Source of the DNA: an uncultured virus (IMG/VR IMGVR_UViG_3300013004_000028)
Taxonomy: Duplodnaviria; Heunggongvirae; Uroviricota; Caudoviricetes
Virus record (IMG/VR): IMGVR_UViG_3300013004_000028
Length of the DNA: 64,000 bases
Reading direction: 5' to 3' (one strand)
Made by a program: the position numbers and the translations under genes. Positions 14,582-50,047 of this stretch are shown here, piece by piece. The notes beneath the pieces are model-generated. The model did no database searches. It saw nothing but the letters and a program-made list of their open reading frames with translations, and was not told where the DNA came from. Position 1 is the stretch's first letter. Every line of letters starts with the position of its first letter.

Positions 14582-14947
14582 TTAATTACCGTCAGATTCT
14601 GGCTGATCAGTAGCGATATCTTCTTCGTCAAGAGTTTCTTCTCCTTTCAAAGACTCAATAAATTTTTGCACAACATCTATAGCAAAACTTTCACGTTCAT
14701 CTTCAGGAACCATAGAACAATAAGAATTTAAAATTAAATGTATTAGTGCAACTACAATTTCCGAATTAAACGAATGAGGGTCTACATAGTCAAAAAAAGC
14801 AGATGAAGCGTCTTCTCCAGAAGCCTTGAATAATACTCTAAATAGAGTTTTAGTATCAGTGGTAATGGTCGGCTCCGATGTTTCAGTGTTCAACTCTTCG
14901 TTGATAATTTCAGCGTCTAAGATTTCTTCATTCATATTATTATTCAT
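14582..14947 (-). CDS. Hypothetical acidic protein
   Basis: ORF overlaps the dnaE stop. Confidence 0.5.
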   Translation of the reverse strand: MNNNMNEEILDAEIINEELNTETSEPTITTDTKTLFRVLFKASGEDASSAFFDYVDPHSFNSEIVVALIHLILNSYCSMVPEDERESFAIDVVQKFIESLKGEETLDEEDIATDQPESDGN

Positions 14948-17510: not shown

Positions 17511-17513
17511 AAA

Positions 17514-18134: not shown

Positions 18135-18361
18135 ATTTGGTTTAAAAAATCTATTTTCTTTTCAAGTTTTTTGATAATAGCTTTAGCTTCTTTTCTTTCT
18201 ATTAGAAGAGGATCACAGAATGAAATTTCCCCATCCTCAGTTATACAATCGTAAATAGGCGTTCCATCTTGATAAACGATTTCAACGACTTTTCCAACTC
18301 TACAGCTATCTCCAAAAAAGATTTTGGTTTTAACAAAGTCACCTTCTTTTATTGTTTGCAT
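18131..18361 (-). CDS. Small hypothetical protein (SH3/KOW-like)
   Basis: IKEGDFVK...GKVVEI pattern. Confidence 0.5.
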   Translation of the reverse strand: MQTIKEGDFVKTKIFFGDSCRVGKVVEIVYQDGTPIYDCITEDGEISFCDPLLIERKEAKAIIKKLEKKIDFLNQI

Positions 18362-18363
18362 AT

Positions 18364-19125
18364 TTATTTTTTATTTTCTAGAAATGATTCCCAACAAAAC
18401 TCCCTAGAAGACATATGATCAAATCCGGGATTGTCAAGTGTTCTTCCTGATCCAAATTGTTTTCTATTCAAGCACTTCAAAGTAAGAAAGGCTTCGTAAT
18501 CACTTCTATTTTTATAATAAATACTTTTAACCTCTTCTGTCTTAAAGTTATTCATCTTAGCAAAAAGAAGAGCAGCTTCTCTAATTAGATAATCAAAAGG
18601 TAGATTATTATCCTCAAGAAAAACTGTAGGGTTAATCTTTTTTAATTCAGGAATACAAAGAGATCCTTGTAATAGATTTTTATGGAGGAAAGAATCATAA
18701 AAAGGAATAGCTAATGCTAAATCTTCGCTCCAAAGAGAATGCAAGTCAGAATAAGAAAGTCTTGCCTCCTTGTTGAAATTATTATAAGCCGCCATAGTAG
18801 AAAGCTTAATCAAAGCCTTATAACCATTAAAATTCTTTGGAAAAATAATATTTTTGTGAGAAGATAAAGAGGTTTCTTCCGAAGAGCTGTTAATGAAGGA
18901 AACTCTTAAGCCAAAAATAAGTTTAATTTTTGAATCTTTACAGGCTTGTAACGCAGCTACGAATCCAGCCATTGTATCCTCTACAAGACATAATTCTTTT
19001 AGATTATTCTCAACAGCAATATTTATAATACTATCTGATAGATCAGTATCTTTATTCTTCTCGTAAGGATCGAGAGTTAATATACTACGTAAAATAGAGT
19101 AGTGACTCTTAAAAAGAGGAATCAT
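18364..19125 (-). CDS. Stand-alone PHP domain of DNA polymerase III alpha
   Basis: KSHYSIL, MAGFV, IKLIFGLR, KNFNGYKALIKLST match the DnaE N-terminal PHP domain. Confidence 0.85.
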   Translation of the reverse strand: MIPLFKSHYSILRSILTLDPYEKNKDTDLSDSIINIAVENNLKELCLVEDTMAGFVAALQACKDSKIKLIFGLRVSFINSSSEETSLSSHKNIIFPKNFNGYKALIKLSTMAAYNNFNKEARLSYSDLHSLWSEDLALAIPFYDSFLHKNLLQGSLCIPELKKINPTVFLEDNNLPFDYLIREAALLFAKMNNFKTEEVKSIYYKNRSDYEAFLTLKCLNRKQFGSGRTLDNPGFDHMSSREFCWESFLENKK

Positions 19126-34443: not shown

Positions 34444-34746
34444 TTAATTTTCCCTATGCTGGAAAGAAGTCAAAAAAAGATTATTTATGATAGTAGCAAC
34501 TATAGGACAATAAATAAAATTATTAATATCAAAACAAAGACAATACCAAAAAGTTAAACAAAAAATACAACCCATCAAATATCTAACTTTTCTGCATAGA
34601 TATCCTAGAATATTTTTACTCCCACCTTTTATATCTAAATATCTATACGCTATTGATCTTGGATAATCAAATATAGGAGCGAAGTTTAATAGAAAAAATA
34701 TGAATACACAAGCTGTAGCCGTTTTTAAAATTTCGATTATTTCCAT
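34444..34746 (-). CDS. Small membrane protein with a CxxC..FW motif
   Basis: Hydrophobic segments and LMGCIFCLTFW. Confidence 0.55.
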   Translation of the reverse strand: MEIIEILKTATACVFIFFLLNFAPIFDYPRSIAYRYLDIKGGSKNILGYLCRKVRYLMGCIFCLTFWYCLCFDINNFIYCPIVATIINNLFLTSFQHREN

Positions 34747-35087
34747 TTCTTTAAATCATTTAAGTCTTCTCTTCCTATTTCTTCAAAGTGAATAATTGCC
34801 ATCAAGTTAAATATTACAGCTGCAAGATGGTCTTCGTCTCTATCTCCTTTCCAATATTGCATTAAATGTCTAAATGCACTGGCAAAGAATCTTGAGAATG
34901 GCATCCCTTTTTCCCAATTCCATTCACCATATTTAACAGCTCCTCTTTCCATCAAAGAAGCTAATCTTGTCATCATAAAAGGAGAGATTAAATCGAATCT
35001 TGGTTTTCCTTCTTGAGTATCTCTTTTAGCTCCAGATTCAAAACTTTGTCTAGCTCCACTATCTTTTGTTTTAAAATTCATACTCAT
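34737..35087 (-). CDS. DUF5664-like dATP/dGTP diphosphohydrolase domain protein
   Basis: SGAKRD..GKPRFDLI, GAVKYG..NWEKG, RH, EDHLAA..FN. Confidence 0.8.
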   Translation of the reverse strand: MSMNFKTKDSGARQSFESGAKRDTQEGKPRFDLISPFMMTRLASLMERGAVKYGEWNWEKGMPFSRFFASAFRHLMQYWKGDRDEDHLAAVIFNLMAIIHFEEIGREDLNDLKKWK

Positions 35088-35115
35088 AAATTAATCTCTA
35101 TTTTTATAAAGTCAA
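35088..35115 (-). promoter_or_regulatory. Sigma70-like promoter (leaderless if the second Met at 35081 is used)
   Basis: TTGACT-N16-TAATTT. Confidence 0.45.
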
Positions 35116-35169
35116 TCTTATAATATGTCTCTTATATAAATATACTATATACATAAATACATAAAGAAA

Positions 35170-35570
35170 GAAGAGTAAGAAGCTTTCCTTCTAGTCAGGG
35201 GACTTCTTACCTACCTGTTTTTGAAAAAAAACAGAAGTATTTGTATGCCTGAACAAGTTTAAATCGCTTGCTTAAAAAAGTTTCCTTTAGTCAGTTTGGA
35301 CTCGCCTTTCAGCGACCCATGAGGTTTTTATTGACGTATCAAAATTGGATAGAAGCCCTTTACCCAACCGACTTGCTCATCTGCCCACTAGATTTATTAG
35401 ATCGTAGCTGTAGAAACTACTGAACAAGTACTCAAATTCTCAACTTCGGTGCACCCTTTCGGATGTTGGTGTTGACAAGTCCCGAGTCAGAGCACCATGC
35501 GATTTTCTTGAATGACATCCGGCTTTGGGAGTCCCGGACCCATTGCGGCAAATGAGGCCGCTATGTAAAA
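35170..35570 (-). ncRNA. Putative ~400-nt structured non-coding RNA, family not recognised
   Basis: ORF-free island, GC-richer than its flanks, with at least eight stems, two GAAA tetraloops and G-U pairs that favour the minus strand; TTGACA upstream at 35605..35610. Confidence 0.6.
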
Positions 35571-35581
35571 TTAACTTTCTT

Positions 35582-35610
35582 TATATAATGCCAAAATTTT
35601 CTTTTGTCAA
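35582..35610 (-). promoter_or_regulatory. Candidate promoter of the structured RNA
   Basis: Perfect TTGACA followed 16-17 nt later by TTATATAAA; the -10 match is imperfect. Confidence 0.45.
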
Positions 35611-35616
35611 GTACTT

Positions 35617-36891
35617 TTATGCAAAACCTTGCAAATCTACAATTTTATTTATACCCGCTAAATCATCTGTGCTAATCCCAAGAATACTGTAAGCTTCTTC
35701 TTCTGTCATTTCTTTTTTTAGAGTTATATCAGGAGGACTTCCATCAATTGTTGGTAGAGCTGTTTCCACTAAAATACTATTATAAAGTGAAATATTCTCA
35801 TATACATTTTTCATTATTAATTTATCTCCTAGTGTTTCCTTATATATTAAAATTACTTGATAAACGGATAAATTTTCTTTTCTGAAATAAACTATCTCTG
35901 TAGCATTTTTAAAAAGACCATCGTAAATATAAGATTGATTTAAATAATTGATTCTTTTTTCTATTTCTTCTCTAGCTGACTCTGCTATATAATCTATTGA
36001 TTTATTTATAAATAAAGGGCTAGAAAAATAACTTGAATTTTCAACTAATAAACGATTAGGCCCAGCTCTTCTACTAAAAGAGTAAGGAATTGTAACCTTT
36101 TCATCTTCTGTTTTTTCGCTCCACTCGGTCAAAGGATCGTCTTCAAATCCCTTTATAGTTTCTACTTCATAATAACCTGCTAGTCCATTAAAAAGACCAG
36201 CTTGATAATCTCCTGCATCTATAGGAAAGCCTATTGTTTTAGCTACACTTTTAAAATATATTTTTATATTTCTAGCTGATAAATCTCCTAACCTTAAATA
36301 CCTATGAGGACTTAAAACATTTGATCTCAAGAACGGTGTAATTTTTACTTCATTACCTTTAATTATTATACTTGCTATTTTTATATATATTTTACCTGCG
36401 TATTCAGAATCTTTTAAAATTTGAGTTCCTCCTAATTTTATAAAATTATCTTTTTGTTGAGTGTAAAGTATATTATTATCATAATACTCTACGAAATTTT
36501 CATCTGTAGATGTTATTATTGAAAATTGATTTATAAAATCCGAATGATTATTTTTGTCATCTAGCCACCAATTTATTTTACCGCCTAAAATTCCATCGCT
36601 AAAACCTGCTGGAACTTTAGGTATAGTTAAATAAACATCACAGCTTTCAGCTGTTTCAAATGTTTTTAAAAAAGATGTTCCTAATTCATAAGTAGTTTCT
36701 TCAAGGGAATTGAAGGGATAATAATTTTTTTTGTCTAAAGGATTATTTTTTATTTCGAAATTTAAATAGTTAGCTTTATAAGTATTTAATATAAATGAAT
36801 TTATATCTCCAGCATTTACTATAAAATTATATTTATTACCTTTTTTAGTACTCAAGATAACTTGAAATGGTAAATATGTTTGATTACTCAT
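35617..36891 (-). CDS. Hypothetical (probably virion-associated) protein
   Basis: End of the structural operon; shares an N-terminal PF..VN.G.I motif with the two upstream genes. Confidence 0.6.
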   Translation of the reverse strand: MSNQTYLPFQVILSTKKGNKYNFIVNAGDINSFILNTYKANYLNFEIKNNPLDKKNYYPFNSLEETTYELGTSFLKTFETAESCDVYLTIPKVPAGFSDGILGGKINWWLDDKNNHSDFINQFSIITSTDENFVEYYDNNILYTQQKDNFIKLGGTQILKDSEYAGKIYIKIASIIIKGNEVKITPFLRSNVLSPHRYLRLGDLSARNIKIYFKSVAKTIGFPIDAGDYQAGLFNGLAGYYEVETIKGFEDDPLTEWSEKTEDEKVTIPYSFSRRAGPNRLLVENSSYFSSPLFINKSIDYIAESAREEIEKRINYLNQSYIYDGLFKNATEIVYFRKENLSVYQVILIYKETLGDKLIMKNVYENISLYNSILVETALPTIDGSPPDITLKKEMTEEEAYSILGISTDDLAGINKIVDLQGFA

Positions 36892-37790
36892 TTTTTAAAA
36901 TTTTTATAATTTTTTTGATCAAAGTAAAATGGAAAATTAAACGCATAATCAAAATCAATTATTTGTTCTAATTTATCTTCTTTACTGCTATCTAAGTAAG
37001 CTATAGGTATTATTTTTTCACCATTTATTATAAAATTGTATTTATCTAGTTTTTCCTCTTCCTCTTTAGTTTGAGTTGAAGATTCTATAAATTCTATACT
37101 TACATCTGAAATAGGACAAGAAGCATTAACAAGCGGAGTTAAAATAGATGATCCGAGTAAAGTCGCTGGTTTAAAAACGAAGGGAGCATTATTTGAATCT
37201 GCAATTTGATAAAAAGCGCTTATATCAGGAGTCCAATTTTTTAAAAGATTCTGTTCTCGAAGTATAGATTCTTTCTCTATTTTTACAGCATCTTCATACC
37301 CTTCAGACGTAGGATCAAATAAAGTATATGAAGGTATATAATTACCTATTTTTATTCCAAGTTTTTCATCTTCCAATTGTATTAATTGTAAATCATTAGC
37401 TATATAATCTCTAATTATATCTTCTGTTAAATATTTTTTAATATAAATTTTGAAAAGATCGGATCTTTTAGAAAATGAAGATGATTCCCATTCATTTACA
37501 CTCTCTGCTAAAACAGAGTCTATATCTTTTAAAGTTATTCTTAAGCATATACATCCTTTAGCCGCCGTATCAATAGTATTAAATCCTATATTTCTTTTCT
37601 CTGCAAAAAAATTTAATCTTTTTTTAGAAAGTGTTTTTGGAACAAATACATTTTTTAAAGAGTTCGAAGCTGTACAAATTACTAATCCAAAATTAACAAA
37701 AACTTTTGTTACAATATTATTTTCTATTTTCTGGATAAAACAAGAAAATGGCTTCATAGGTTCTATATTTAATTTTTTCATTTTAAACAA
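36888..37790 (-). CDS. Hypothetical (probably virion-associated) protein
   Basis: KPFSCF...VFVNFGLV...IPIAYL...EQII motif shared with neighbours. Confidence 0.6.
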   Translation of the reverse strand: MFKMKKLNIEPMKPFSCFIQKIENNIVTKVFVNFGLVICTASNSLKNVFVPKTLSKKRLNFFAEKRNIGFNTIDTAAKGCICLRITLKDIDSVLAESVNEWESSSFSKRSDLFKIYIKKYLTEDIIRDYIANDLQLIQLEDEKLGIKIGNYIPSYTLFDPTSEGYEDAVKIEKESILREQNLLKNWTPDISAFYQIADSNNAPFVFKPATLLGSSILTPLVNASCPISDVSIEFIESSTQTKEEEEKLDKYNFIINGEKIIPIAYLDSSKEDKLEQIIDFDYAFNFPFYFDQKNYKNFKK

Positions 37791-38679
37791 TATTAGAATC
37801 TATAGTTATGCTGTTACCGTTATCAATACTTTCTATAAATCTGTTCTCTTCACTCGGAAAAATAAACTGTTTACTATAAGAAATAATATTTATATTTTTA
37901 TTATGTTTTATATATCCTCTTAATGAATTTTCAGATGACCTTCCCAGAAGAGTAGAAACTTGTTTTTTATTTCCTATAATTTTTTCATTTAATTCAAGCT
38001 TTTCATCTTCTAAAGTTTCACTAACATTTATATCATAAAATTCTGTATTCATTAATTCAAAAGAAGCTGAATCAAATAGTTCTGTTAAAGCATAGTTTTC
38101 ATTTAAGAATTGATCTACTGTCCATTCGCCTTTTTCATCTTTGTAAATAGATGCTACAATAGCTAAATTAATAGCATTTCCTCCCCAATATATTTCATCT
38201 CTATATAAATAATCTAATTCAGAATTTCTTTCTTCTGCATTTAAATCAAAACTTTCTAATTTAATATTAGAATCGCTTAAATTTTTTGTATTTCCCAAAA
38301 TTTCAAAATTACTTCTGTCTTCTTCATCTAAATAAGCCTTACAAGCTATCCATGCTTTGTCTAAAAATGGAATATAAGATGGTCCCGGAACCCATTTATC
38401 TGGAGGGTTAAAAGAAGCTAATATATATATATTTACTTTAAAATATTCAGATTTTAAAATAAAAGAAGTCTCCTTGATCGTTCCATTCCTTTCGCTTTTT
38501 CTTTCTTCATTTAAAAAAAAATCTAATTTAGGAAGAGGCTTGCCATATATATCACAAGTAACATTCCTATAATTTAAAGGATTATAAAAATTAAATACTT
38601 TTCCAGAATTTATCGCGAAGATATCTGAGTTATTTATTTTAAAAACTTCCGTCTTAAATGGATGGTATTGAATTGGCAT
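37783..38679 (-). CDS. Hypothetical (probably virion-associated) protein
   Basis: HPFK...FAINSGKV...IVASI...DQFL motif shared with neighbours. Confidence 0.6.
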   Translation of the reverse strand: MPIQYHPFKTEVFKINNSDIFAINSGKVFNFYNPLNYRNVTCDIYGKPLPKLDFFLNEERKSERNGTIKETSFILKSEYFKVNIYILASFNPPDKWVPGPSYIPFLDKAWIACKAYLDEEDRSNFEILGNTKNLSDSNIKLESFDLNAEERNSELDYLYRDEIYWGGNAINLAIVASIYKDEKGEWTVDQFLNENYALTELFDSASFELMNTEFYDINVSETLEDEKLELNEKIIGNKKQVSTLLGRSSENSLRGYIKHNKNINIISYSKQFIFPSEENRFIESIDNGNSITIDSNIV

Positions 38680-41600
38680 TAAGGTATAGAGAAAGAAGAA
38701 ACCACTGGAGAAGGGTCATTATTAAAAGAATAAGCTGTTAAAGTAATTAAAGCTTGATCATTTTCATTAAAAGTAATTTCTTCTATATCATCGTGTGTAA
38801 TTTCCAGATATCTTTTTTGACTATCTAAACTAATTTGAGTTGCGAAACCTTTTATTTCATATTTATCGAAATCAAGAGGAGTCGGGCCTCTAAATTCATA
38901 TACTGGAATTTCATCATCAATAGAATTTTTAATTTTTACACTCCAAACTTGATTCATTCTTTTTTTAATATTATAGAATGTTCCAGTTAAGTCCAAAATT
39001 GAATTTGCGAATTGTTTTTTAAAATAGCAACTTTGCACATAAACTGTTGAATTTATTGTTTTTTCTAATTCTTTAGGAATATTTGATTTTACTAATCTAG
39101 AAAAACTAATATTAATTAAACTCATAGACTCTTTAAATGGTCTTTCATTTATTTTTGATTTTTCTTCAGGAAATAAATCTACAAACGTATTTTGAGTATT
39201 TATTAAATTAGTATTTTTCACATCATAGAAATTAGGAGTTTCATAAAAATAACCAAAATTTTGACTTCCAACATTTTCAGTCAAATAATATCTACAAAAT
39301 CCAGCTTGAATATTCAAATCTAAACTTTTATTTAAAAATCCTGAAAATACAATATTGTCCAATTCATTATTTGGAATAGGTGTTAATTTATTAGTTCCAT
39401 AAGATTTCGGTATTTTATAAATAACTCCTTCTAAAGATACATATGAATAATCATAATTTTTATGTTTTATAAATAAATCAATAATTTCATTTACAGCGTA
39501 GCTATAAGTATTATTATTTTTTAGATAAAAAGTATTTTTTGTTTCTAGAACAGTCCCATTTGAAGCGTATTTTGTAGCCTCAAAATATAATTTATCAAAA
39601 TCTGTATACAATTTCGGAAAATTATTATTTTTTATGTTGAATAAATAAGGTAAAATTTCTTTTGTGAAAAAAGATACAATATTAGAATTACTTTCAGATA
39701 TGCCTTTATATTTAGAATTGCTTCCTCCTATAATATTTTTATCCCAAAGTGTAGCCTTATTGTTTTCTTCAAAAAAGGTAGAAAAACATTTAATATCTCC
39801 GCAACTATTCCTTTTCTCATCTCTTATTAATGGATTGGTCGTAGTAAAAACTCTGTAATTATTATTTCCTTGACTAGTAATAGTAGAAAATTGACCCGGT
39901 ATTCCATAGAGTTTATAAATAAAATATTGAAAAAGACCACTGAAAACACCTTCCAATAATGTTCCTTCTGAATATAATTGATATGGAGTTGGAGTTAAAA
40001 ATGTAGAAAGATTTTCTTCTTCTAACTGTACTCCAAAAATATTAACTTTCCATATATTTGATTGTGGATTAAAACCGTCTTGACTAATACTAGAGTCACT
40101 TGCATTAACTAATTTTATATTTATATTTTCTTCATTAAGTATTTTAAATTTAACAAAAACTCTTTTTATATTCTGCGGATAGAATGCTCCTTCTTTATCA
40201 GTATCATATGAGCCTGCTTGCACTGATTTGTCAGTTAGAACTGCACCAAGACTATTTATATTACAATAAAAACTTTCCCCGCAAAATATTTGAATAAAAG
40301 GAACGCCTGTTTCAGCAGGCAAAGGATCTTGAGGTAAAATATAAAAAGAAAAAGTATAATCTTCTTTTGTTGAATCTTTTTTCGTAAAATTAAAATTTAT
40401 TTTATACTCGTTTGTTGCAGTATTCGCTAATGTTCCATAAGATACAAAATTTGGATTTGCTATATCATCAATTTTTACATTTGTTGATAAAGAATCAACT
40501 GTAAAATTTTCCGATTGTGTAGATTTTATTAAATTAGCAGACTTAGAAGTAGATCTATCTGAAAGAAATTCTTTATCATCAAAAGTTATACCAAAATTTA
40601 TAGAATCTGAGTCAGAATAAAAACATGACGTATTATCTTCTTTTTTTAAAACTAACAAATTATTCTCATTCCAATTTATACCATAATCAAGTTTTTTTAT
40701 ATCTTGATTGTCTTCTCTTTTGTAAAAATCATTATACACATCTTCTACATTATCAAATGGAGTTAAATTTTGATAAGTAATTATACCATCCTTTATTATT
40801 GAATTAATAAATTCTTTTCCTTTATATTCTAACGAATCTGAGAATCCTCCGTTGTTTTTGAAATAATAAGTATTACTATTTAAAACTCTAGTTTTTACTA
40901 AATCTTGAGATGATAATCTATATTGTCCATTGTAATCTATATTGCTAAGATTTTTAAAGAATAAAGTATCAGAATCTGAGGTTAAAAATATGAATGGTCT
41001 TGTTTCACCTTTCGCTTCTGAAGAAAATAAAATATATTGATCATTTAGAGTTGCGTAAGAAACTCCTCTATATGGATAAATATTTCCAATTTGAGTATTG
41101 GTAATAGATGTCGGAAGATTTTTTGTATGCAATAGAACACTTGACGGAAATATAAATTTATGTTTTTCAAAAACAAATTTACCTTCCATTTCCTCTTTAT
41201 CTACTATGCCTGTTATGGGAAAAGGAGTAAAATTATTTGGAATAGCTATTGCCTTGTAAGTATTTAATCTTTCATAATTTAATTCGTAATTTTCAAATGT
41301 ATTAGGTAAACCAGTTTTACCTCCCAAATCTATAAAATAATCTGGATTTAAATTTAAATCGTTTATTTTAGTATTTATTGGAAGGCCATCATTAGGTTGA
41401 ACAATATAAACTACTTCTCCTGTAGCTTTTAAATTTGTAAATTCTCTACTTAATTGTCCTTCTAAAGAATAAAATTTTACATCTTGTATATTTCCTTTTA
41501 TAGTATAGTCATCTTTTGTTTTTTCGAAGTCTGTGTTATAAAGAAGGCCATTGGAAATACCATTTTGCGTAAAAAGAGTTCCAGAATAAGATACATTTAT

Positions 41601-42524
41601 ATTCTCTGATCCAAAAAAATCAGTGGAAGATCCAGTTATAGTTAAGTCTCCTGTTTTCCCTTCTGTGTATTGAAAATCTAAATCTATTTTAGAACCTTCT
41701 ACTTGCAATAAATATTCTAATTCAAAAATAGCTTTTGATATGCCTGTTTGAATAATATCCCCAGAGTACGCGGAAATATTTGACCATGTAATACGCTCAA
41801 AAACTATATCATCTGTATCATCTTCTTGAGCATCTTCATTAACAGTTTGAGCATTCTGTATTTGTAATGAATACGACTGGTTCCCAAAATTTGTTTCTAA
41901 ATCTAAGTAGACAGGGAATCCTTGAGAATATCCGCTTGTATCATAGTTGAAAAAATTTATATAATTTCCGGGTTGTATTTCTTTTACATGTGTGAATTTC
42001 CCTGTAATGCTACTCGAATTTATAGAAAAAATATCAACAATATACTGTCCTTTATTAGTTATTTTTCCGCTTACTGCTTCATTTGAATAAAAATTTGAAA
42101 ATTCTAATTTAGGGATAGAGCTTCCATATATAAAAGCGTCTAAATCTACAGAATTCGAAACTGGAGAATCTAAAATTTTAACCACTAATGCGCTAAATAT
42201 AGAAGTTGGAGTGGCGAGTACCCCCTCTCTAGTGATAGGAACAGAGTTTAAATAATCTTTATAAGTAGTATATCCTTGAACATAAGATCCTTCGGAAAAT
42301 GGTTCTTTAATATAAGAATTTATACTAATAGGTTCTTTGTTAAAAGTTCCTATAATATTATCATTTGGATCTTTTATTATACCAGATTTAAATAAATAAC
42401 GAACATAATGTGTTCCTGTAATTCCTACTTCAAAATGATCACTAGAATAATTATAAACTTTAAAGTCAAAGTTTAAAGATTTTTGAGGGTAAAAATTCCT
42501 ATATTGTATTCCTGTAATTTTCAT
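38679..42524 (-). CDS. Large beta-rich tail/baseplate protein with a carbohydrate-binding-like module
   Basis: 1281 aa, N/S/T-rich; YTFSFYI...IFGVQLEE...PTPY resembles fibre/spike lectin-like modules. Confidence 0.55.
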   Translation of the reverse strand: MKITGIQYRNFYPQKSLNFDFKVYNYSSDHFEVGITGTHYVRYLFKSGIIKDPNDNIIGTFNKEPISINSYIKEPFSEGSYVQGYTTYKDYLNSVPITREGVLATPTSIFSALVVKILDSPVSNSVDLDAFIYGSSIPKLEFSNFYSNEAVSGKITNKGQYIVDIFSINSSSITGKFTHVKEIQPGNYINFFNYDTSGYSQGFPVYLDLETNFGNQSYSLQIQNAQTVNEDAQEDDTDDIVFERITWSNISAYSGDIIQTGISKAIFELEYLLQVEGSKIDLDFQYTEGKTGDLTITGSSTDFFGSENINVSYSGTLFTQNGISNGLLYNTDFEKTKDDYTIKGNIQDVKFYSLEGQLSREFTNLKATGEVVYIVQPNDGLPINTKINDLNLNPDYFIDLGGKTGLPNTFENYELNYERLNTYKAIAIPNNFTPFPITGIVDKEEMEGKFVFEKHKFIFPSSVLLHTKNLPTSITNTQIGNIYPYRGVSYATLNDQYILFSSEAKGETRPFIFLTSDSDTLFFKNLSNIDYNGQYRLSSQDLVKTRVLNSNTYYFKNNGGFSDSLEYKGKEFINSIIKDGIITYQNLTPFDNVEDVYNDFYKREDNQDIKKLDYGINWNENNLLVLKKEDNTSCFYSDSDSINFGITFDDKEFLSDRSTSKSANLIKSTQSENFTVDSLSTNVKIDDIANPNFVSYGTLANTATNEYKINFNFTKKDSTKEDYTFSFYILPQDPLPAETGVPFIQIFCGESFYCNINSLGAVLTDKSVQAGSYDTDKEGAFYPQNIKRVFVKFKILNEENINIKLVNASDSSISQDGFNPQSNIWKVNIFGVQLEEENLSTFLTPTPYQLYSEGTLLEGVFSGLFQYFIYKLYGIPGQFSTITSQGNNNYRVFTTTNPLIRDEKRNSCGDIKCFSTFFEENNKATLWDKNIIGGSNSKYKGISESNSNIVSFFTKEILPYLFNIKNNNFPKLYTDFDKLYFEATKYASNGTVLETKNTFYLKNNNTYSYAVNEIIDLFIKHKNYDYSYVSLEGVIYKIPKSYGTNKLTPIPNNELDNIVFSGFLNKSLDLNIQAGFCRYYLTENVGSQNFGYFYETPNFYDVKNTNLINTQNTFVDLFPEEKSKINERPFKESMSLINISFSRLVKSNIPKELEKTINSTVYVQSCYFKKQFANSILDLTGTFYNIKKRMNQVWSVKIKNSIDDEIPVYEFRGPTPLDFDKYEIKGFATQISLDSQKRYLEITHDDIEEITFNENDQALITLTAYSFNNDPSPVVSSFSIP

Positions 42525-42525
42525 T

Positions 42526-44985
42526 TTAAATAATATTTATATAGGATTTGCCGGGGTTGCTTCTTAATGCATTATTTAATTGATGCGTTTTTACACTATC
42601 AGAAGGATTTACAGGAAAAGAGTTTGAAAAAGTAAGATTAGTTCTAGTCCCACTCTGATCTAATCTTATGGAAAAAGATACTAGTCCATCTTCTGGACCT
42701 AATAAAGAATTAGGTAATCCAAAAATAGAATAAGTTTTAGTTTCTTTCTCCTCTTGCAAATTTGTATTTAAATTAAATAATATTTTATCTGCATAAGTTT
42801 TAATTTTTGCTTCATCTATATAACATCTATTATCATTTCTTTCTAAGTTAGAAATATCTCCATTTGTTATATCTTTAGTATTTGCTCTAATAGAAACATA
42901 TTTATCATTTTGTTTTCCTTGTGTAGCAAAAACTAATTCAAGTTTAGGTATAATAGCTTTTATTTTTCCAAAATTAAAAGAATTGACAGTTTCTATAACT
43001 TTTATTACATAATTAGAATCTATAGGTGATAAGATTGGTAATCTTGTATATGTACCCTTAGTTTTCTTTATATAAAATTTAAATAATTTACATTTATTGG
43101 ATTTCGCTCCTAAGCCTTCAGTATTTTCATTTTCGTCTGGAGATATTCCATTTGAAATCTCACATTCTATATCAGGCTGCTTATTCTCTCCAAAAGACCA
43201 AACTAAATATAACTTTTCTTTATCAGTCAGAGCTGCCCCACCTTCTGAAGTTCTGTCTAAAAAAACATAAGGTTTTAAGCCATCTATAAATTTTTCTACA
43301 TTTTCAGAATTTGGGTCAGGTTGCCATATAGGAGTTCTATTAAGGACAACAATATTTTTTTCGGCAAACTTTGATATCTCAGCTGCTCTTATATATGGAT
43401 GAGAAATATTTATATCTGGAAATACAAATTTATTACCGGGTTTAATCCTTGAGAATCCTTTAACAGTTCCATCTGGACTTTCAAAACTTTTATCTTCTAA
43501 ATCACTTGCAGCAGCAGACCAATATTTTCCACAAAATGTTTTAGCTATCTGAAGTTCAAAATCATAAGCTTTAGTTCCTGTTTCTTCTACAATTAATAAG
43601 TAAGCCCCTCCTTCTTTTAGTTCTTTTATTTTTTCTTCTGTAAAAGCTCCTCCTAAACTAGGATTAGAAGATCCTATTATATTATGGTAAAGAGCTTGGC
43701 ATTGAGCTTCCCCTTTTTTGCCTGCTTGTTTATCTGTCGTATTCTCATGGCATATAGCTTTTATATTCCATCCTAAAAGAGCATTATTCCCTGTCCCTAA
43801 TTTTACTTTATCCGGACTTGTATATTCGAGTACTTTAACATAACAAAATAAATCTCTTAATTCTTTACTATAGTAACTTGCAATAACTGATGCTTGGAAA
43901 TTGAATTCTGATCCATATCTTCTTTCTAATGGTCTATTTCCGTTGGATAATTTATCGAGAGATATTGGGAAAAGCGTTCTATTACTATTTCTACTAGATC
44001 CAGATCCTCCCCCTGTATTTGAACTACAATCATATTCTTTTATTTCTCCATCTTTTCCAAAATATGCTATATTTATATCTTTGGAAAGTCCTTCTATGCT
44101 TTTACTTGTAGAAACTTCTTCTATTTTGCAGTTATTCGAATCTTTTATAGTCGAATCATTTATATTTATACCTCTACTTAAATCAAAGAAAATCACTGTA
44201 TCGTTTTTCCAATAAAATGAAAATCCAAAATCTTGACACCAATTGTTCAAAACTTCTCTAAGAGTTCCTGTGTATTGAGCTCTGTAATCGACTGGAGAAG
44301 AAAAAGTATTATTGAAATTCACTCCATATCTAGAAGCTTCTTGTATGAGATCGCTAAATTTATAATCTACATCCAACTTGCTGAATCCTCTTGATTTCTG
44401 ACAATCTAAAGAGTTATTAGGGGTTGTGTTTGATGTACAAGGATCACATTTATCTTTCTCAGAGTCATTTTCTAAATTGCCACATGGATCAATATAATCT
44501 CCAACAAAAATCATATTTGAAAAATCTCCAACAGCTCTATAAATAGATAGATTGCTAACTTTATTTGAAACTAAACTAGGAGTAACTGATGAAGTTTTTA
44601 AATAATTATTTAAATTTATATTACCGGGTAATGCTACTTGTGTTGTATTTTGTTTTAATATATTCGGCAAAGGGCCTCCATCTTTGCCTTTTAATCCTAC
44701 ATATATTTTGTCTAAAATTACACTAGTATCGACAAGGGTAAGTTCACAAGTTTTTCCAGATGTTACGCTTTCCTTTGTAGAAAAAGAAATAGCATGTCCC
44801 TTAAAAGTATAAAAATTCCCAATCCTAACTACTATTTCGGATTTTGTGTTAAGATTGTAGTCTTCTTTTCCCCATATAAAAGATAATCTTAATGTAGACG
44901 GCTCAGATCCTCCACCGCTTAAATCTGCTGAGTAAACTTTTTTCGTAATACCTGATATTTTTATTGAAGGAAAATCCGCTTTCAT
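42526..44985 (-). CDS. Putative baseplate hub / tail tip protein
   Basis: LTLVDTS.ILDK and YTGTLREVLNNWCQDFGFSFYW resemble hub-protein patterns; lies downstream of the tape-measure-like gene. Confidence 0.5.
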   Translation of the reverse strand: MKADFPSIKISGITKKVYSADLSGGGSEPSTLRLSFIWGKEDYNLNTKSEIVVRIGNFYTFKGHAISFSTKESVTSGKTCELTLVDTSVILDKIYVGLKGKDGGPLPNILKQNTTQVALPGNINLNNYLKTSSVTPSLVSNKVSNLSIYRAVGDFSNMIFVGDYIDPCGNLENDSEKDKCDPCTSNTTPNNSLDCQKSRGFSKLDVDYKFSDLIQEASRYGVNFNNTFSSPVDYRAQYTGTLREVLNNWCQDFGFSFYWKNDTVIFFDLSRGININDSTIKDSNNCKIEEVSTSKSIEGLSKDINIAYFGKDGEIKEYDCSSNTGGGSGSSRNSNRTLFPISLDKLSNGNRPLERRYGSEFNFQASVIASYYSKELRDLFCYVKVLEYTSPDKVKLGTGNNALLGWNIKAICHENTTDKQAGKKGEAQCQALYHNIIGSSNPSLGGAFTEEKIKELKEGGAYLLIVEETGTKAYDFELQIAKTFCGKYWSAAASDLEDKSFESPDGTVKGFSRIKPGNKFVFPDINISHPYIRAAEISKFAEKNIVVLNRTPIWQPDPNSENVEKFIDGLKPYVFLDRTSEGGAALTDKEKLYLVWSFGENKQPDIECEISNGISPDENENTEGLGAKSNKCKLFKFYIKKTKGTYTRLPILSPIDSNYVIKVIETVNSFNFGKIKAIIPKLELVFATQGKQNDKYVSIRANTKDITNGDISNLERNDNRCYIDEAKIKTYADKILFNLNTNLQEEKETKTYSIFGLPNSLLGPEDGLVSFSIRLDQSGTRTNLTFSNSFPVNPSDSVKTHQLNNALRSNPGKSYINII

Positions 44986-44991
44986 AATATT

Positions 44992-46644
44992 CTATTCAAA
45001 AGGTCCAAGAATCCTAAATGCGCCTGACCAATTAGAGTTAGTATTATTATAAATACTACTCTGATCAACTAATGTTATTCTATCTCTTTTTCCATGAGAT
45101 AAATGTAAAGTAGATGTTTCGTAATAATCTTCTTTTACCTGTCTATATTTTACTTTTGCTGAATTTTCTCCTAAAAATACTATACTTGCTCCCCTTGCAA
45201 AAAGGCCCTTCGAAAATGTAAAATTTGAAAATAACTGCAATGGATTAGCTGAAGTTTTATCGTATATTACTGGATATACTCCATTCTCTAATATCTCTGG
45301 AAATGTAATATGTGTTTCGTCTATTGTATAATTATCTACTTTTCCAGAGTAACCCCAGTATACATTATAACCATTTACAAATTCTTCGTCTAATCTAAAA
45401 AGACCATTTGAAGTATCAAAAAGTAATTGCTTTCCTATATCTTTAAATGATTTGCCTGCTTGAGTTTGCAATAACATATATGGCTTTTCTAGGATCTGAC
45501 TATCCATATAAAAAGCTTTTTCATTTATTGCTCCATCCATATGCAATGACTGTTTATAAGTAGTCGCTGTATTTATCTCTGTTAAGTTTGCAGTTGAAAC
45601 ATATGTGTATTTTTCCAACTTATTATATGTAAAAAAATCTTCTACATCAATATTTGCTCCAGTATAGAAAGAAAATAAATGACTTACTGTTCTTTCTGAC
45701 TGATCATTCATTGAGTAATAAATTTCATCATTAAATATTATATTATTTGAACCTATGCTAAAAGGAGTATATTCTCCTCCTATTGGAATTATAGTTCCTG
45801 TATTGTAACATAATAAATCTTGACTTAAACTATATTCTCCTGACCAAAAAATTTTACTTAAAGCATTAGATCCTGTACCAAATATAGTAGATATATAATT
45901 ACCTGTATTTGTAGGTATATAATTTTCAGTTACATAGTCTAAAAATGGTATAAATTTTTCAGCGTTAGACTGAGATAAACTCGAATTATTTTTTCTTTCA
46001 AGCTGTTTAATCTCAGAAGTTTTTGTATAAACATTAGTATAAGTACCTTCTAATGGTAAAAAACCTGAAAAAACTTTTTCATAATCTTCTTTTTCTAATG
46101 TGCCTGTGAAACAAACTAGCTGATCAAAATATCCCGATATACCACTTAACGAATTCTTGTTTAAAACATAAGTATTATAGCCTATGAAAAAACCTCCTCC
46201 TGAAAGATTTGTTTCTGGTTTAAATGAGAAAGACTCTGTTTTATAAATAGATCTTGAATCTATATCATAATTTAATAAAGTTATATTATTAGAAGCTTTT
46301 ATTATACCTAAACAGTTTTTTTTAGCTAGTCTTATATCGGAGAATGTGTAGCAGTCAGATTTTGAAGAGTTTGAGTATAAAAATAATTCATTATTATTAT
46401 TAAAGTTTAAAGAAAAACCTGCATTCGATTGAATTTTAAAATTCGAAAGTAAAGAGCCTGCTTGATTATTCTTTTTTTCTAAAGTAAAAAATAATGAAAA
46501 ATCACAATCTCCAGTTATCCCAGTTAATTGAGTAAACTCTGAATTAATAAAACTTCTAGATTTAGCAGAACTTGTATCAAGCCATTTATCTCTTACTAAT
46601 AGAGATGCAGCTTCTGACTGTGATATAAAATAATTTAATTCCAT
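44992..46644 (-). CDS. Putative virion protein with an N-terminal LamG/ConA-like domain
   Basis: FSLFF...LLSN...GFSL...FFIG...SGYFDQL pattern. Confidence 0.5.
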   Translation of the reverse strand: MELNYFISQSEAASLLVRDKWLDTSSAKSRSFINSEFTQLTGITGDCDFSLFFTLEKKNNQAGSLLSNFKIQSNAGFSLNFNNNNELFLYSNSSKSDCYTFSDIRLAKKNCLGIIKASNNITLLNYDIDSRSIYKTESFSFKPETNLSGGGFFIGYNTYVLNKNSLSGISGYFDQLVCFTGTLEKEDYEKVFSGFLPLEGTYTNVYTKTSEIKQLERKNNSSLSQSNAEKFIPFLDYVTENYIPTNTGNYISTIFGTGSNALSKIFWSGEYSLSQDLLCYNTGTIIPIGGEYTPFSIGSNNIIFNDEIYYSMNDQSERTVSHLFSFYTGANIDVEDFFTYNKLEKYTYVSTANLTEINTATTYKQSLHMDGAINEKAFYMDSQILEKPYMLLQTQAGKSFKDIGKQLLFDTSNGLFRLDEEFVNGYNVYWGYSGKVDNYTIDETHITFPEILENGVYPVIYDKTSANPLQLFSNFTFSKGLFARGASIVFLGENSAKVKYRQVKEDYYETSTLHLSHGKRDRITLVDQSSIYNNTNSNWSGAFRILGPFE

Positions 46645-46663
46645 TACCCTTAGACCTTTAAAC

Positions 46664-46679
46664 AGAATACACTTTAAAA
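46664..46679 (-). promoter_or_regulatory. TTTTAAAGTGTATTCT element (GTGTA-class promoter)
   Basis: Identical to 26145..26160. Confidence 0.55.
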
Positions 46680-46684
46680 CCTAT

Positions 46685-49600
46685 TTAAAGAAGATTGTCC
46701 GGAATTATAATAGCTTTTTCGGCAGACCAAGAAAAAGCAAAAGTTATAGATCCAGCTGGAGAAACTTTTGAAATTTGAGAAGAGTCTAAAATTTTATTAG
46801 CTCCATAAAAAATCGAATTAGAAATTTGATTTACTCTATTCCTTAACTGAGCTACTGTTTTCTCGTAAGAGCAACAAACGGGTTTAATCAATGTCCCTTG
46901 GATATTAAATGCCGCCCTTTTTATTATTTTAATGTCTTCTATATAATGACAGCCATTACTATTAATAGGCAATGAAGCTTTTATTTCTTTTAAAGCTGGA
47001 ACGAAAGAATATTCATAAGTAAAATTTTGTAAACATCCACAATCAGAACCTAAACTGTTGCAAAATTTAGCACCTATTTGAATGGTTCCTTCAAATTGGT
47101 TCTCTGAATAAGAATTATCTTTTTCATTGAAATTCAATCTTTCCGTATTACCGAATTTTGTCCATTTTTGCTGCACATAATCTGCAAAATCTAAATTATT
47201 ATAATATTTGTAAACATTATCCCATCTATCTTTTTTACATTTTATCTCAGATCTTATAGTCAAATTAGCTTCTATACATTTTCTTGAAGTTATTAGATCA
47301 TGAGTGATTCGAGTTTCGTCTATTGTATAAACTTTATTGTCTTGTTTATTTGAAAACTCTAAAGAAAATCCTACGCTATTATTAGAGAAATCTCTTTGAA
47401 GAGAAAAATTTGTGGGAGTTGTATATAGTGGAGAAAAATCTTCCGGATAATATTCAGTCACAGAGTAATCACTCCCTAACTCTGAAAGAGCTTTATTTAT
47501 ATAATCTATAAAAGTCGGGATCATCAGAAATTTGCCTCCATTCCCAATTAATCCCAAAGTTATAATTTCATCATTTGGGGTAATTAAACATACATTGCTT
47601 CCGCTATCCCCAGCTATAAAATCATTAAAAAATAAACTTTCAGGAGAAAGATTTGATTGAACATATTCGTTGAAAGTATCATCAATGGAAAATTGTTGTG
47701 TTTGCTGATCTGTTACTGTAATTTTTTGAAATTTCCCGATACAAGCTCTTTGAAAAGGGGATGCTTCACTTACTCCCGGACTACTCTCTTCTATTTGGTC
47801 TCTGCAAAATAAAGAGTAATCTTTTAAATCTATAAAATTTTTATAATTTTTGGTGAGAACTCTAAAAAACTTTACAGTATCAGGCAAAGCTTCGTTAAGA
47901 ACTCCTAATCCTAAATCTGAAGCTATTTGATTAGGATGCCCTACTTCTAATATAGAAACTAAAGTTCTAGTTAAAACTTTATTATCATTAGTTAGAAAAT
48001 ATAAAGTTTGACCTACATTAACAGGGTAATGATAAGCAAATAAATAATGCTTTGGAGTAATTAATATACCTATTTTTCTATTTTCATATCCAGATTCACT
48101 ACTAGCGACAACAAACCCTGAAATATCTATGCCATAAATCCAGCAAGATGGATTTTTTACAAAAGTCAGAGTGGATGTACTAAAAGTGCTCCATATTCTT
48201 TTTTGTTCAGTCGTTCCAGTTAATCCTGCTACTCTTTGAGATATTCTAGATGAAAAATTAGGATATTTAAATTCTTTTGATTCCGTAAGATACATTTCAT
48301 TAGCTGTTGAATACCAATCTTTAGTTGATATATCATATTTAATAGCTTCTAATGTGCTATCTTTAGAAGAAATTTCATTCAATCCTTTAGCTAATAATGG
48401 ACCTTGGTGAGTTCCATCTATTTTGACTGAAACTTCTCCATTTTCAGAAATAGACATATCTCTAACATATTTTAAAATACCATAATGACTTTTAGATAAA
48501 CCAGATTGTAAAACAAAAGTTTTAGTTAAAGATACTTCACCTGTTAATCTATTTAAAGTTTCATTTTGAGAAATTAAAAAAGAGTTATAAGAATTTAAAT
48601 CCGCTGTTTCAAAATAATTTTCTATAGCAGCTTTCCAAATGTAAAGAGATTTAGTAGCTACAGTTGTATATAAAGATACAGAATTAGAATCTACTATAGA
48701 TAATTGAAAAAATGGAAATAAAGATCTCTTTGTATCGTATGTTATAGATATTTTATACCAACCATTACCAGCATCGGAAATATAATGGTTAATGTAAGAA
48801 GTCGCTTTATTTTCATCTACATAAATAGATCCTTTCTGTCCAGTTTTTATATTGAACCAACCTCTAATTAAATAAGGATCTAAACCTGAATAGTTAATAG
48901 TTCCCCCGTAAACATAAGGAGTAGTAGTTGTATTAGCATATGATATTGAAGTACTTGTAGAACCGGTAACTACAAAAGTCCCATTGTATCCAGATGGATT
49001 AATATTCTCTACAGTAACTGTAGTCCCAACCGATATAGTTCCTGATCCAGCTAAATATGTTATAGTAGCTGTAATTCCATTTCCACTTGCTCCAGTAACT
49101 CTAAATTTTTCAAAACCGAATGATAAAGTAACCCATTCCGCTGTTACTGCTTTGACGTATATAGATGTTTTATATCTTCCTGAAGTAGTAGAACCATCTC
49201 CCGGATTTATTATACTCCCTTTTATAAGATTCAATCCATTGGAAGGGCAAGCAATTCCGTCAGCTGTTAGAGATCCATCAGGAGCCAAAGTATCATTGGG
49301 CAAAACGCCCATATTTACTGTTTTCCAATATGTGTCATTATCAAATGCGCTTTCTGATATAAGAATATTACTCTCATTTATTAAACTTGAGTAAGTTAAG
49401 TAAAGATTATTTAAATCAGAACTTAATAAATTAGAGTTAGAAGCTACAAAATTTTTAGCATTTTGAAAACCACCTTGTGTTTTATTTAATCCTTTGCAAG
49501 AACATGAAAGTGTTATATTTATTGTGTTGTCAGGAGAGACTTCTAATCCTAAATTTCTTTTAGGCTCTATTATTCCATAATTTTCAAAATATCCTTTTTT

Positions 49601-50047
49601 AAAACATTCTATATTTATAGTATAGGGCACCCAATCGTACCATTTGTTGTCATCAAAACTTATAGATTTGATTATGCAATTTTCCCATTCTTCGACATTC
49701 TCGTAGCCTACTATACCTTGTATACCTTGAATACCCTGTACACCTTGTACCCCTCTATTTTCTATTAATTGTAACTTTTTAAAATTTTTAGAGAATTTGG
49801 AAACAAGCAAATCTGCTACATTTTTAATCCCTTCGAATCCAGATTCGCAAGGATTATAATATGAGCCTGTCGCTCCAGTTACTGAAATCGGATAATTTCT
49901 TTTTATTCTCCCTGTTAAAGATAAATTGTCTACTAAATTTATATCAGAATTAGAATAGATATTCTGAACATCTCTTGATATAAAAGGTGTTGGACCTATA
50001 TTAGAAAAAATATCTTCCGAATCGTATAAAACTTTAACTTCACTCAT
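46685..50047 (-). CDS. Tail-associated protein with inserted lectin/spike-like and trypsin-like serine protease domains
   Basis: APDG..TADG spike-like module; ILITPKHYLFAYH, SDLGLG and GDSGS protease triad; scaffold resembles 50047..51744. Confidence 0.65.
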   Translation of the reverse strand: MSEVKVLYDSEDIFSNIGPTPFISRDVQNIYSNSDINLVDNLSLTGRIKRNYPISVTGATGSYYNPCESGFEGIKNVADLLVSKFSKNFKKLQLIENRGVQGVQGIQGIQGIVGYENVEEWENCIIKSISFDDNKWYDWVPYTINIECFKKGYFENYGIIEPKRNLGLEVSPDNTINITLSCSCKGLNKTQGGFQNAKNFVASNSNLLSSDLNNLYLTYSSLINESNILISESAFDNDTYWKTVNMGVLPNDTLAPDGSLTADGIACPSNGLNLIKGSIINPGDGSTTSGRYKTSIYVKAVTAEWVTLSFGFEKFRVTGASGNGITATITYLAGSGTISVGTTVTVENINPSGYNGTFVVTGSTSTSISYANTTTTPYVYGGTINYSGLDPYLIRGWFNIKTGQKGSIYVDENKATSYINHYISDAGNGWYKISITYDTKRSLFPFFQLSIVDSNSVSLYTTVATKSLYIWKAAIENYFETADLNSYNSFLISQNETLNRLTGEVSLTKTFVLQSGLSKSHYGILKYVRDMSISENGEVSVKIDGTHQGPLLAKGLNEISSKDSTLEAIKYDISTKDWYSTANEMYLTESKEFKYPNFSSRISQRVAGLTGTTEQKRIWSTFSTSTLTFVKNPSCWIYGIDISGFVVASSESGYENRKIGILITPKHYLFAYHYPVNVGQTLYFLTNDNKVLTRTLVSILEVGHPNQIASDLGLGVLNEALPDTVKFFRVLTKNYKNFIDLKDYSLFCRDQIEESSPGVSEASPFQRACIGKFQKITVTDQQTQQFSIDDTFNEYVQSNLSPESLFFNDFIAGDSGSNVCLITPNDEIITLGLIGNGGKFLMIPTFIDYINKALSELGSDYSVTEYYPEDFSPLYTTPTNFSLQRDFSNNSVGFSLEFSNKQDNKVYTIDETRITHDLITSRKCIEANLTIRSEIKCKKDRWDNVYKYYNNLDFADYVQQKWTKFGNTERLNFNEKDNSYSENQFEGTIQIGAKFCNSLGSDCGCLQNFTYEYSFVPALKEIKASLPINSNGCHYIEDIKIIKRAAFNIQGTLIKPVCCSYEKTVAQLRNRVNQISNSIFYGANKILDSSQISKVSPAGSITFAFSWSAEKAIIIPDNLL
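49711..49753 (-). repeat. 9-bp tandem repeat encoding a collagen-like (G-V/I-Q)n stretch
   Basis: RGVQGVQGIQGIQGIVG. Confidence 0.7.

Follow-up and report, generated by a model that had tools for sequence, protein, structure and literature searches.

Among the RNAs that phages encode, GOLLD and ROOL form cages, have no assigned function, often lie near tRNA islands and are represented by Rfam profiles; lake and marine metagenomes were the first source of GOLLD, many members of which exceed 800 nucleotides (nt) (PMC12286853). Here we describe a predicted non-coding RNA (ncRNA) gene of ~410 nt, with predicted ends at 35165-35576 on the minus strand of a 64-kb stretch of DNA from an uncultured lake-water phage (IMGVR_UViG_3300013004_000028). 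This whole stretch is called the window below, and all positions follow its numbering. Like GOLLD and ROOL, the window RNA would be a large, elaborately folded, phage-encoded ncRNA without a known protein partner; it differs in its length of ~410 nt, in matching neither of their covariance models and in lying in a 64-kb window that contains no tRNA. ROOL is considerably larger than 410 nt.

The pRNA of phi29, from the small protein-primed podoviruses, is ~170 nt long, has its own early promoter and works as a folded particle and not by antisense pairing. The window RNA, too, is phage-encoded and structured, with a predicted early promoter of its own, but it matches no Rfam family, and its phage is large (related contigs reach 170 kb) with DnaE-type replication. 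HK022 put and EAR are processive antitermination RNAs several times smaller than 410 nt. As in those systems, a long co-oriented operon is headed by a structured RNA that lies between a promoter and a terminator-like hairpin, but the window RNA is larger, is followed by a second promoter-like site in five of six homologs and matches no family. Finally, ColE1 RNA II, T4 oriF/oriG and the T7 primary origin work via a persistent RNA-DNA hybrid. The locus shares with ColE1 RNA II and T4 oriF a promoter, a structured transcript and an A/T-rich region beside replication genes; unlike them, it comes without an antisense partner or a GC-skew inflection, and its loops are conserved besides its stems.

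We conclude with high confidence that the locus encodes a functional structured RNA on the minus strand. Its novelty is that of a new family within a known kind, the large structured phage RNAs of unknown function.

Results

A GC-rich gap devoid of open reading frames

The RNA lies in a 529-nt gap (35088-35616) flanked by two minus-strand genes, at 34737-35087 and 35617-36891. Neither strand of the gap holds an open reading frame (ORF) of at least 60 amino acids (aa), the longest being 55 and 51 aa on the plus strand and 39 aa on the minus strand. Among the ten gaps longer than 40 nt that separate ORFs of at least 80 aa, it is the longest, the runner-up measuring 275 nt. Each of the three gaps next in length (275, 229 and 169 nt) contains one small minus-strand ORF (63, 76 and 61 aa), so the RNA gap is the sole real ORF-free gap of the window, as an earlier note on this DNA, made from the sequence alone, had observed. 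The same note had described the gap as GC-richer than its flanks, and indeed the GC content is 0.407 at 35201-35600 against 0.313 and 0.270 in the adjoining 400-nt bins; this is one of only 4 bins in 160 with a GC content of at least 0.40, in a window of ~30% GC overall. Stops occur in all frames of the gap, and the relatives introduced below show frame-breaking indels of 1-2 nt inside the longest small ORFs. Thus, no open frame is conserved among relatives, as it would be in a protein-coding gene or pseudogene.

The RNA is more conserved than the adjoining coding DNA

The 424-aa protein encoded upstream of the gap has 25 relatives (31-100% identity), and an alignment of 20 of its relatives retrieved the viral locus L007 and the metagenome loci L008-L011. 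In each of these five distinct relatives, the gap sequence follows the protein gene directly and with unchanged orientation. All homolog comparisons below use six sequences, the window and L007-L011; five IMG/VR contigs that carry the locus with a 100% identical gap (531 nt) add no information.

Over the gap, identity to the window is 95.4% in L010, 94.0% in L007, 96.8% in L011, 86.8% in L008 and 88.0% in L009. In the core of the RNA (35175-35575, minus strand), the corresponding values are 98.5, 97.3, 98.3, 88.9 and 90.1%. For the coding DNA downstream, L007 and L010 reach 89-91% identity, L008 80.6% and L009 83.8%. Thus, the syntenic copies that the earlier note proposed to look for exist and are more conserved than the coding DNA next to them. 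Third codon positions of the neighbouring 116-aa gene are 77.6% (L007), 79.3% (L010), 85.2% (L008) and 81.0% (L009) identical, and first and second codon positions 94-99%. By these identities, the RNA of L007 and L010 changes ~8-14 times more slowly than nearby third positions, a pace like that of non-synonymous sites.

The upstream protein is 73% identical in L008 and 32-43% identical in L007, L009, L010 and L011. L011 has the RNA alone in common with the window (466 nt, 96.8%). The protein encoded upstream matches only in its N-terminal half, at 43% identity, and downstream an unrelated UDP-galactopyranose mutase gene (PF03275, E 6.5e-67) replaces the diphosphohydrolase of the window. Within the RNA, the most variable stretch is a linker at 35268-35288. 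Loops and junctions are conserved like the stems, which suggests that the RNA may engage in many tertiary or protein contacts.

A mosaic boundary runs through 35600-35620. From the predicted RNA promoter downstream, L007, L009, L010 and L011 show 84-91% nucleotide homology to the window; upstream of the RNA, the same loci match it only in patches of 64-72%. L010 also has ~870 nt of extra sequence inside the downstream homology.

Pairing is maintained on the minus strand only

Folded as a single sequence, the minus strand reaches -118.8 kcal/mol (z -2.1) and the plus strand -113.4 kcal/mol (z -2.0), with 3 of 100 shuffles equal in either case. Because these z-scores are modest and strand-blind, the hairpins listed in the earlier note could by themselves do little more than suggest an RNA.

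The alignment of homologs distinguishes the two strands. RNAalifold folds the minus strand of the six sequences into 121 pairs (-102.6 kcal/mol, covariation term -1.9); 98.6% of the cells are paired and 99 of the 121 pairs never vary. The 22 variable pairs comprise 13 with one-sided changes via G-U, 4 with double changes and 5 that depart solely through an unpaired cell; 16 stay paired and 6 include an unpaired cell. The double changes affect the 5' hairpin (C-G to U-A), the pair 35439/35323 (G-C to U-A) and, twice, an A/U-rich hairpin. We counted 18 further pair types, against 3-7 when the partners were slid by 1-3 columns, a contrast that is inflated because the structure was derived from the same six sequences. 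When the same alignment was folded as the plus strand, the covariation term turned into a penalty (+2.14) and 15 of 21 variable pairs broke, mostly as A-C where the minus strand has G-U. Since pairing is kept on the minus strand and broken on the plus strand, the RNA is on the minus strand, the strand to which the earlier note had assigned it on account of its GNRA loops and G-U pairs. The six sequences thus show compensatory changes on one strand only, as in a structured RNA under selection. Of the covariation that the earlier note proposed to look for, the double changes and the one-sided maintenance of pairing were found; the signal itself is thin, because the relatives are so alike.

A compact, multi-domain fold is predicted

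All elements described in this section are on the minus strand. Every stem listed in the earlier note is present in the sequence at the coordinates given there, including GCGGC/GCCGC at 35545-35549/35557-35561 and GUAAGAAG/CUUCUUAC at 35203-35210/35175-35182. The predicted fold opens with a 5' hairpin, CAUAGCGGC / GCCGCAAUG (35541-35565), whose helix 1 changes a C-G to U-A in L009 and a G-C to G-U in L008. It is followed by a local hairpin, UCCGG-GACUCCCAAAG-CCGGA (35518-35538), with its stem at 35518-35522/35534-35538. Alternatively, GGUCCGGGACU (35530-35540) can pair with AGUCCCCUGACU (35193-35204) in the loop of the 3' hairpin, and RNAalifold favours this 10-bp long-range pairing over the local UCCGG/CCGGA hairpin; because all positions are invariant, the alignment does not discriminate between the two options. 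The long-range helix competes with the local hairpin and with the base of the 3' hairpin, suggesting a pseudoknot or alternative folds. A three-part long-range helix joins AUGUC, CAAG and AAAUCGC (35499-35518) to their partners GCGAUUU, CUUG and GGCAU (35245-35267). Its 16 predicted pairs are all invariant, and an inverted repeat at 35261-70/35496-505 was found independently. Next come a hairpin with a GGGAC loop, UGGUG..UGAC-UCGGGACUU-GUCA..CACCA (35467-35497; helices 7 and 8), the outermost pair of which is C-A in L008 and L009, and a first GAAA-tetraloop hairpin, CAUCC-GAAA-GGGUG (35452-35465), invariant in all six sequences.

The central domain (35315-35450) is closed by a long-range helix, ACCGA..UGAGAAUUU / AAACCUCA..UGGGU. 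Here the pair 35439/35323 is G-C in four sequences and U-A in two, and the same two changes recur in a contig from a freshwater metatranscriptome (X17, see below). In this domain, helix 12, ACUUGUUCA / UGAGCAAGU (35371-35429), encloses inner hairpins (35383-35417), and three of its pairs vary only via G-U or A-U alternatives (L007, L008); in helix 14, an inner G-U becomes A-U in L008 and L009. The domain also includes the hairpin GGUUGGGUA-AAGGGCUUC-UAUCCAAUU (35343-35369; helix 15), with three G-U pairs, one of which changes to A-U, and the invariant hairpin UUGA-UACG-UCAA with a UNCG-type loop (35331-35342; helix 16).

A second GAAA-tetraloop hairpin, CGCU-GAAA-GGCG (35303-35314; helix 17), in which a U-G becomes C-G in five of six sequences, brings the RNA to two GAAA tetraloops and one UACG loop. 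It is followed by one copy of a ~30-nt module, AGUC-loop-GACUA-(G)AAGGAAA, that occurs twice, ~97 nt apart. This copy, module A, reads AGUC-CAAACU-GACU-AAAGGAAA and precedes the variable linker (35273-35302; direct-repeat families D1 and D2); module B is part of the 3' hairpin. The AAGGA words resemble ribosome-binding sites, yet only 7 of 52 window genes have such a word upstream. In a third repeat, D3, the 10-nt ACUUGUUCAG at 35420-35429 has a second, 100% identical copy at 35249-35258. Since UGAGCAAGU can pair with either copy, the RNA may have an alternative fold, and the GGGAC of two loops could pair with GUCC(C) at three places. Finally, the A/U-rich hairpin UACUUCUGUUUUU / AAAAACAGGUAGGUA (35208-35239; helix 19) has two pairs with double changes (U-A to C-G; C-G to U-A or U-G).

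One candidate, a terminal helix that joins the 5' end to the 3' tail (inverted repeat I1), was rejected: the single-sequence fold contains it, but L007, L008 and L009 do not keep it. An alternative local helix CAAC/GUUG (35465-68/35441-44) shows one A-U to G-C swap and one A-C mismatch, and does not stand out from shuffles (166 of 500).

The conserved block starts at a putative promoter box and ends past a hairpin

In the six-way alignment, the conserved block opens at an invariant TTGACA and drops off past the 3' hairpin. The TTGACA, which the earlier note had seen just upstream of the RNA, would be the -35 box of a minus-strand promoter (35605-35610); it is invariant in all six homologs, even though they diverge further upstream. 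Of the intergenic minus-strand TTGAC[AT] sites that lead into the replication gene array, it lies furthest upstream. Seventeen nt further on, the sequence reads TATATA (35582-35587), a candidate -10 box. At the same spacing the homologs have TATACA, TATGGG or TATAGG, with just TAT kept, and the consensus scanner did not call TATATA because its position 6 is not T. From this promoter, we infer a transcript start near 35576-35575; invariant columns resume at 35578.

At the other end, a composite hairpin, GGUAAGAAG..CCU-GACUAGA-AGG..CUUCUUAC, together with a U-rich tract forms a candidate terminator (35160-35210, minus strand) that contains repeat module B. The hairpin (35175-35210) is the minimum-energy fold in all six homologs (-11.3 to -14.3 kcal/mol), and its stem changes in L008 and L009 retain pairing via G-U. 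It was missed by the terminator scan because its loop exceeds 8 nt and its stem has few G-C pairs. Beyond it lies a very A/T-rich spacer of variable length (35088-35159, minus strand; 13-29 gap columns among homologs), in which a second promoter-like TTGACT (35115-35110) precedes the next gene in five of six homologs and is absent in L011. Thus, the TTGACA start, the 3' hairpin end and the second promoter-like site fit a separate transcription unit.

Contigs from several other libraries cover parts of the RNA. X17 (freshwater metatranscriptome) has one 307-nt contig on 35248-35543, with the flanks largely uncovered, and X20 (marine metatranscriptome) has contigs on 35192-35374 and 35452-35573; X16, probably DNA, covers 35257-35482, and X18 covers 35240-35389. 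These contigs come from diverged relatives in other waters. RNA-library contigs are assembled and carry no strand, ends or level, and absence of cover is uninformative; as to transcription, they are a weak hint at most.

No known family matches, and the distribution is narrow

The earlier note had seen no signature of a tRNA, transfer-messenger RNA (tmRNA), RNase P RNA or group I intron, and had named an Infernal search of Rfam as one check, in which a match would remove the novelty. ARAGORN found no tRNA and no tmRNA gene in the whole 64 kb, and none of the 4227 covariance models of Rfam 15 matched the whole window at gathering score. At E<=10, the region 35000-35750 gave four chance-level matches only (13.6-16 bits against cut-offs of 33-100), and at E<=1 the relatives L007, L008, L009 and L011 gave none. 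The GOLLD and ROOL models likewise matched neither the window, nor 35000-35750, nor the four relatives. We found no description of this RNA in the literature, which is not proof of its being unpublished, and the six contig numbers looked for are absent from the readable tables of Fremin et al. 2023 (PMC10690425; 10,006 viral RNA candidates), a catalogue that was covered only in part.

Searches with three conserved patterns returned the same seven viral contigs each time, of which one was new and resembles L009 closely. BLASTN ('distant') of the gap against 50,697 GenBank phage records gave no match. In a protein search with DnaE, all relatives were below 60% identity and the nearest DnaE of a cultured phage was ~33% identical, so the window phage has no cultured relative. 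Among 185,579 species genomes of bacteria and archaea, a 21-mer had no match and a gapped pattern had one; this match, in an Acidimicrobiia metagenome-assembled genome of 64% GC, lies inside long open frames where nhmmer finds nothing, and we attribute it to chance. nhmmer found no copy in the surroundings of 68 distant dGTP-diphosphohydrolase homologs (39-68% identity; best E 1.6), and a covariance model of the central domain, run over the window, the 68 loci and L101, found the window's own copy only. Fifteen lake-water DNA runs contain all sampled words; all are possible sources, so none is independent. The RNA family is real but, within the collections searched, narrow, belonging so far to one small group of uncultured phages.

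The absence of Rfam matches, the conserved homologs and the maintenance of pairing on the minus strand alone together support the earlier proposal of a new minus-strand phage ncRNA, and the RNA probably founds a new, narrowly distributed family of phage RNAs.

Gene context

Every credible gene of the window is on the minus strand. Downstream of the RNA, the 116-aa product of 34737-35087 resembles dATP/dGTP diphosphohydrolases (PF18909, E 2.6e-23; phrog_801). It begins an array that includes a glycosyltransferase, a ClpP-like protease, ribonucleotide reductase, ThyX, a RecA-like protein, DnaB, primase and a split DnaE, with ~45 co-oriented genes behind the RNA in all. Upstream, the gene for the 424-aa protein (35617-36891) adjoins the RNA in every homolog. 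This protein has no Pfam or PHROG match; its AlphaFold 2 (AF2) model is poor (mean predicted local distance difference test score, pLDDT, 62.4), and Foldseek returned nothing from the PDB at E<=0.001. The earlier note had placed the RNA between structural and replication modules. The downstream side, with its genes for replication and nucleotide metabolism, agrees with this placement; the nine upstream proteins (eight of 298-1281 aa, one of more than 4067 aa) match no Pfam or PHROG family, and it is plausible that they are structural. Among the annotated genes of the window we saw no obvious protein partner for the RNA, and at the level of Pfam annotation no window protein was recognised as a reverse transcriptase, a TnpB/IscB-like or a Cas-like protein.

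Several further features of the window were noted. In the 424-aa protein, the N-terminal half is conserved and the C-terminal end variable, as is often the case in receptor-binding proteins, a role it may thus have. The eight consecutive proteins without a Pfam or PHROG family occupy 35617-51744 (minus strand), and beyond them, at 51768-63998 (minus strand), one open frame, longer than 4067 aa, continues past the end of the window, with an AT skew down to -0.43 and a GC content above that of the rest. The DnaE-type polymerase (14940-19125, minus strand) appears to be split: separate ORFs encode the PHP domain (18364-19125), the RNase T-like exonuclease (17514-18134) and the polymerase core (14940-17510), with a 76-aa ORF as a fourth part. 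An RNA ligase-like protein (PF09414 plus the oligonucleotide/oligosaccharide-binding (OB) fold PHA02142) is encoded at 6402-7691 (minus strand), 28 kb from the RNA. A glycosyltransferase family 25 gene at 4857-5552 (minus strand) also gives a weak, probably spurious match to the geminivirus Rep central domain PF08283 (E 2.8e-6, 27.8 bits, cut-off 24). A 150-aa protein (8465-8917, minus strand) has a sub-threshold match to sigma-70 region 2 (E 9e-4, 19.4 bits, cut-off 24), and by this resemblance may be a phage sigma-like factor for late genes.

Sigma-70-like TTGAC[AT] boxes stand in gaps at 35610, 35115, 31048, 26614 and 26454. Only 7 of 52 genes carry a Shine-Dalgarno-like word within 20 nt upstream, and the leaders are A/U-rich. 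The scarcity of these words, the TTGAC[AT] boxes and the ~30% GC content hint at an A/T-rich host that may itself be sparing with Shine-Dalgarno sequences.

Discussion

What form would a functional RNA on the minus strand take? We lean towards a stand-alone RNA that is made early from a host-type promoter and acts through its fold. This form is supported by the identity that the RNA keeps in L011, where both neighbours are swapped, by the second promoter-like site that usually follows it and by loops and junctions as conserved as the stems. A host RNA polymerase of the sigma-70 type would start at the conserved TTGACA-17-TATAxA promoter, the first such promoter heading the replication and nucleotide-metabolism array, and most transcripts would end at the composite hairpin and its U-rich tract. 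The RNA would then fold into a compact multi-domain body in which two long-range helices join the 5' and 3' parts, the central domain is closed by the covariation-supported helix and GGGAC loops kiss GUCC(C) segments. Such a body may act in trans early in infection, as a scaffold or decoy for a host or phage factor, or it may be an RNA-only particle; antisense pairing would play no part in its action.

Several observations weigh against this reading. The single-sequence z-scores favour neither strand, and covariation is thin: the sample is six sequences, double changes number four, and the invariant 99 of 121 pairs, which include both long-range closing helices, contribute none. The slid-column control flatters the structure, as said, and at one junction a local helix competes. 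Strict consensus scans called neither the promoter nor the terminator hairpin. The RNA-library contigs are assembled sequences, and DNA can occur in RNA libraries; an X20 contig extends 27 nt upstream of the predicted start, and X20 also includes pieces of the downstream genes. The role as scaffold, decoy or RNA-only particle is a guess by analogy with GOLLD and ROOL. Finally, the next gene of L011 starts within ~30 nt of the RNA with no promoter between, so read-through must occur there, which favours a leader role.

We regard it as rather unlikely that the RNA is a cis-acting leader of a long early or middle transcript, rendering RNA polymerase terminator-resistant across the 35-kb downstream array (processive antitermination) or stabilising or gating the mRNA. 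Its place directly behind a conserved promoter, heading ~45 co-oriented genes, would suit a leader, as would the weakness of the 3' hairpin, a non-canonical terminator, and the arrangement in L011. However, the second TTGACT of five of six homologs would bypass a cis-acting leader, and the different downstream gene in L011 means that the RNA is not the regulator of one particular gene. At ~410 nt it is also several times larger than such antitermination RNAs as HK022 put and EAR, and no cis-regulatory family of Rfam matches it.

It is improbable that the transcript is an origin or primer RNA, the alternative raised by the earlier note, entering the A/T-rich 35088-35159 so that a persistent RNA-DNA hybrid primes or opens an origin. 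A promoter, a structured transcript and an A/T-rich region of variable length do stand right before DnaB, primase and the split DnaE. The cumulative GC skew nevertheless passes through 35 kb without an inflection, a weak argument because all genes share one strand; the RNA is just slightly G-rich (plus-strand GC skew -0.08), and a search for direct repeats gave three two-copy families only and no iterons. Rather than a primer, a stable folded particle is indicated by loops and junctions that are 98% conserved over 400 nt, by GNRA and UNCG loops and by the helices of long range.

We think it very improbable that the conserved entity is the DNA itself, as a homology linker for module exchange or a protein-binding site in which the stems are incidental. 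Such an element would explain why the block sits exactly at the mosaic boundary for L007, L009, L010 and L011, and why L011 has this piece alone in common with the window. Double-stranded DNA, however, would not maintain G-U-compatible pairing on one strand only (an unpaired cell in 6 of 22 variable pairs on the minus strand against 15 of 21 on the plus strand), and the conserved block is bounded by a promoter box on one side and by the hairpin and its U-rich tract on the other.

Least credible of all is that the RNA belongs, in strongly diverged form, to a known family (RNase P RNA, tmRNA, group I or II introns, GOLLD, ROOL or others) or that the gap is the remnant of a protein gene: the strings GAAGUCC and GAAGGAAAGC, which resemble RNase P or signal recognition particle (SRP) motifs only loosely, were checked through Rfam alone and lend no positive support, Rfam 15 (0 of 4227 models at gathering score) and ARAGORN found nothing, the intact flanking genes leave nothing to be spliced, and stops in all frames with frame-breaking indels among relatives speak against a former gene.

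A bolder version of the stand-alone RNA can be put forward only tentatively. The RNA may be the first known of a new class of large phage RNAs that fold autonomously. As constrained as the non-synonymous sites of a protein, it would be the earliest product of the early programme in an uncultured lineage of large, A/T-rich, Shine-Dalgarno-poor freshwater phages and related marine ones, and would work as an RNA machine, be it a ribozyme, an assembly made of RNA only or a decoy for a core host factor.

Large, highly conserved and elaborately folded RNAs are rare, and every class known to date (RNase P, tmRNA, OLE, GOLLD, ROOL) either proved to have an unusual activity or is still a puzzle. The window RNA stands out by the extreme constraint on nearly every nucleotide and by its compactness (~410 nt); its narrow distribution, the thin covariation and the lack of a functional handle limit its interest. 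It is tractable without the host for in-vitro folding, probing and cryo-electron microscopy, and can be used as a marker for tracing this abundant uncultured lineage of lake phages. Should a host factor prove to be its partner, the RNA would disclose how such phages take over hosts that are difficult to investigate.

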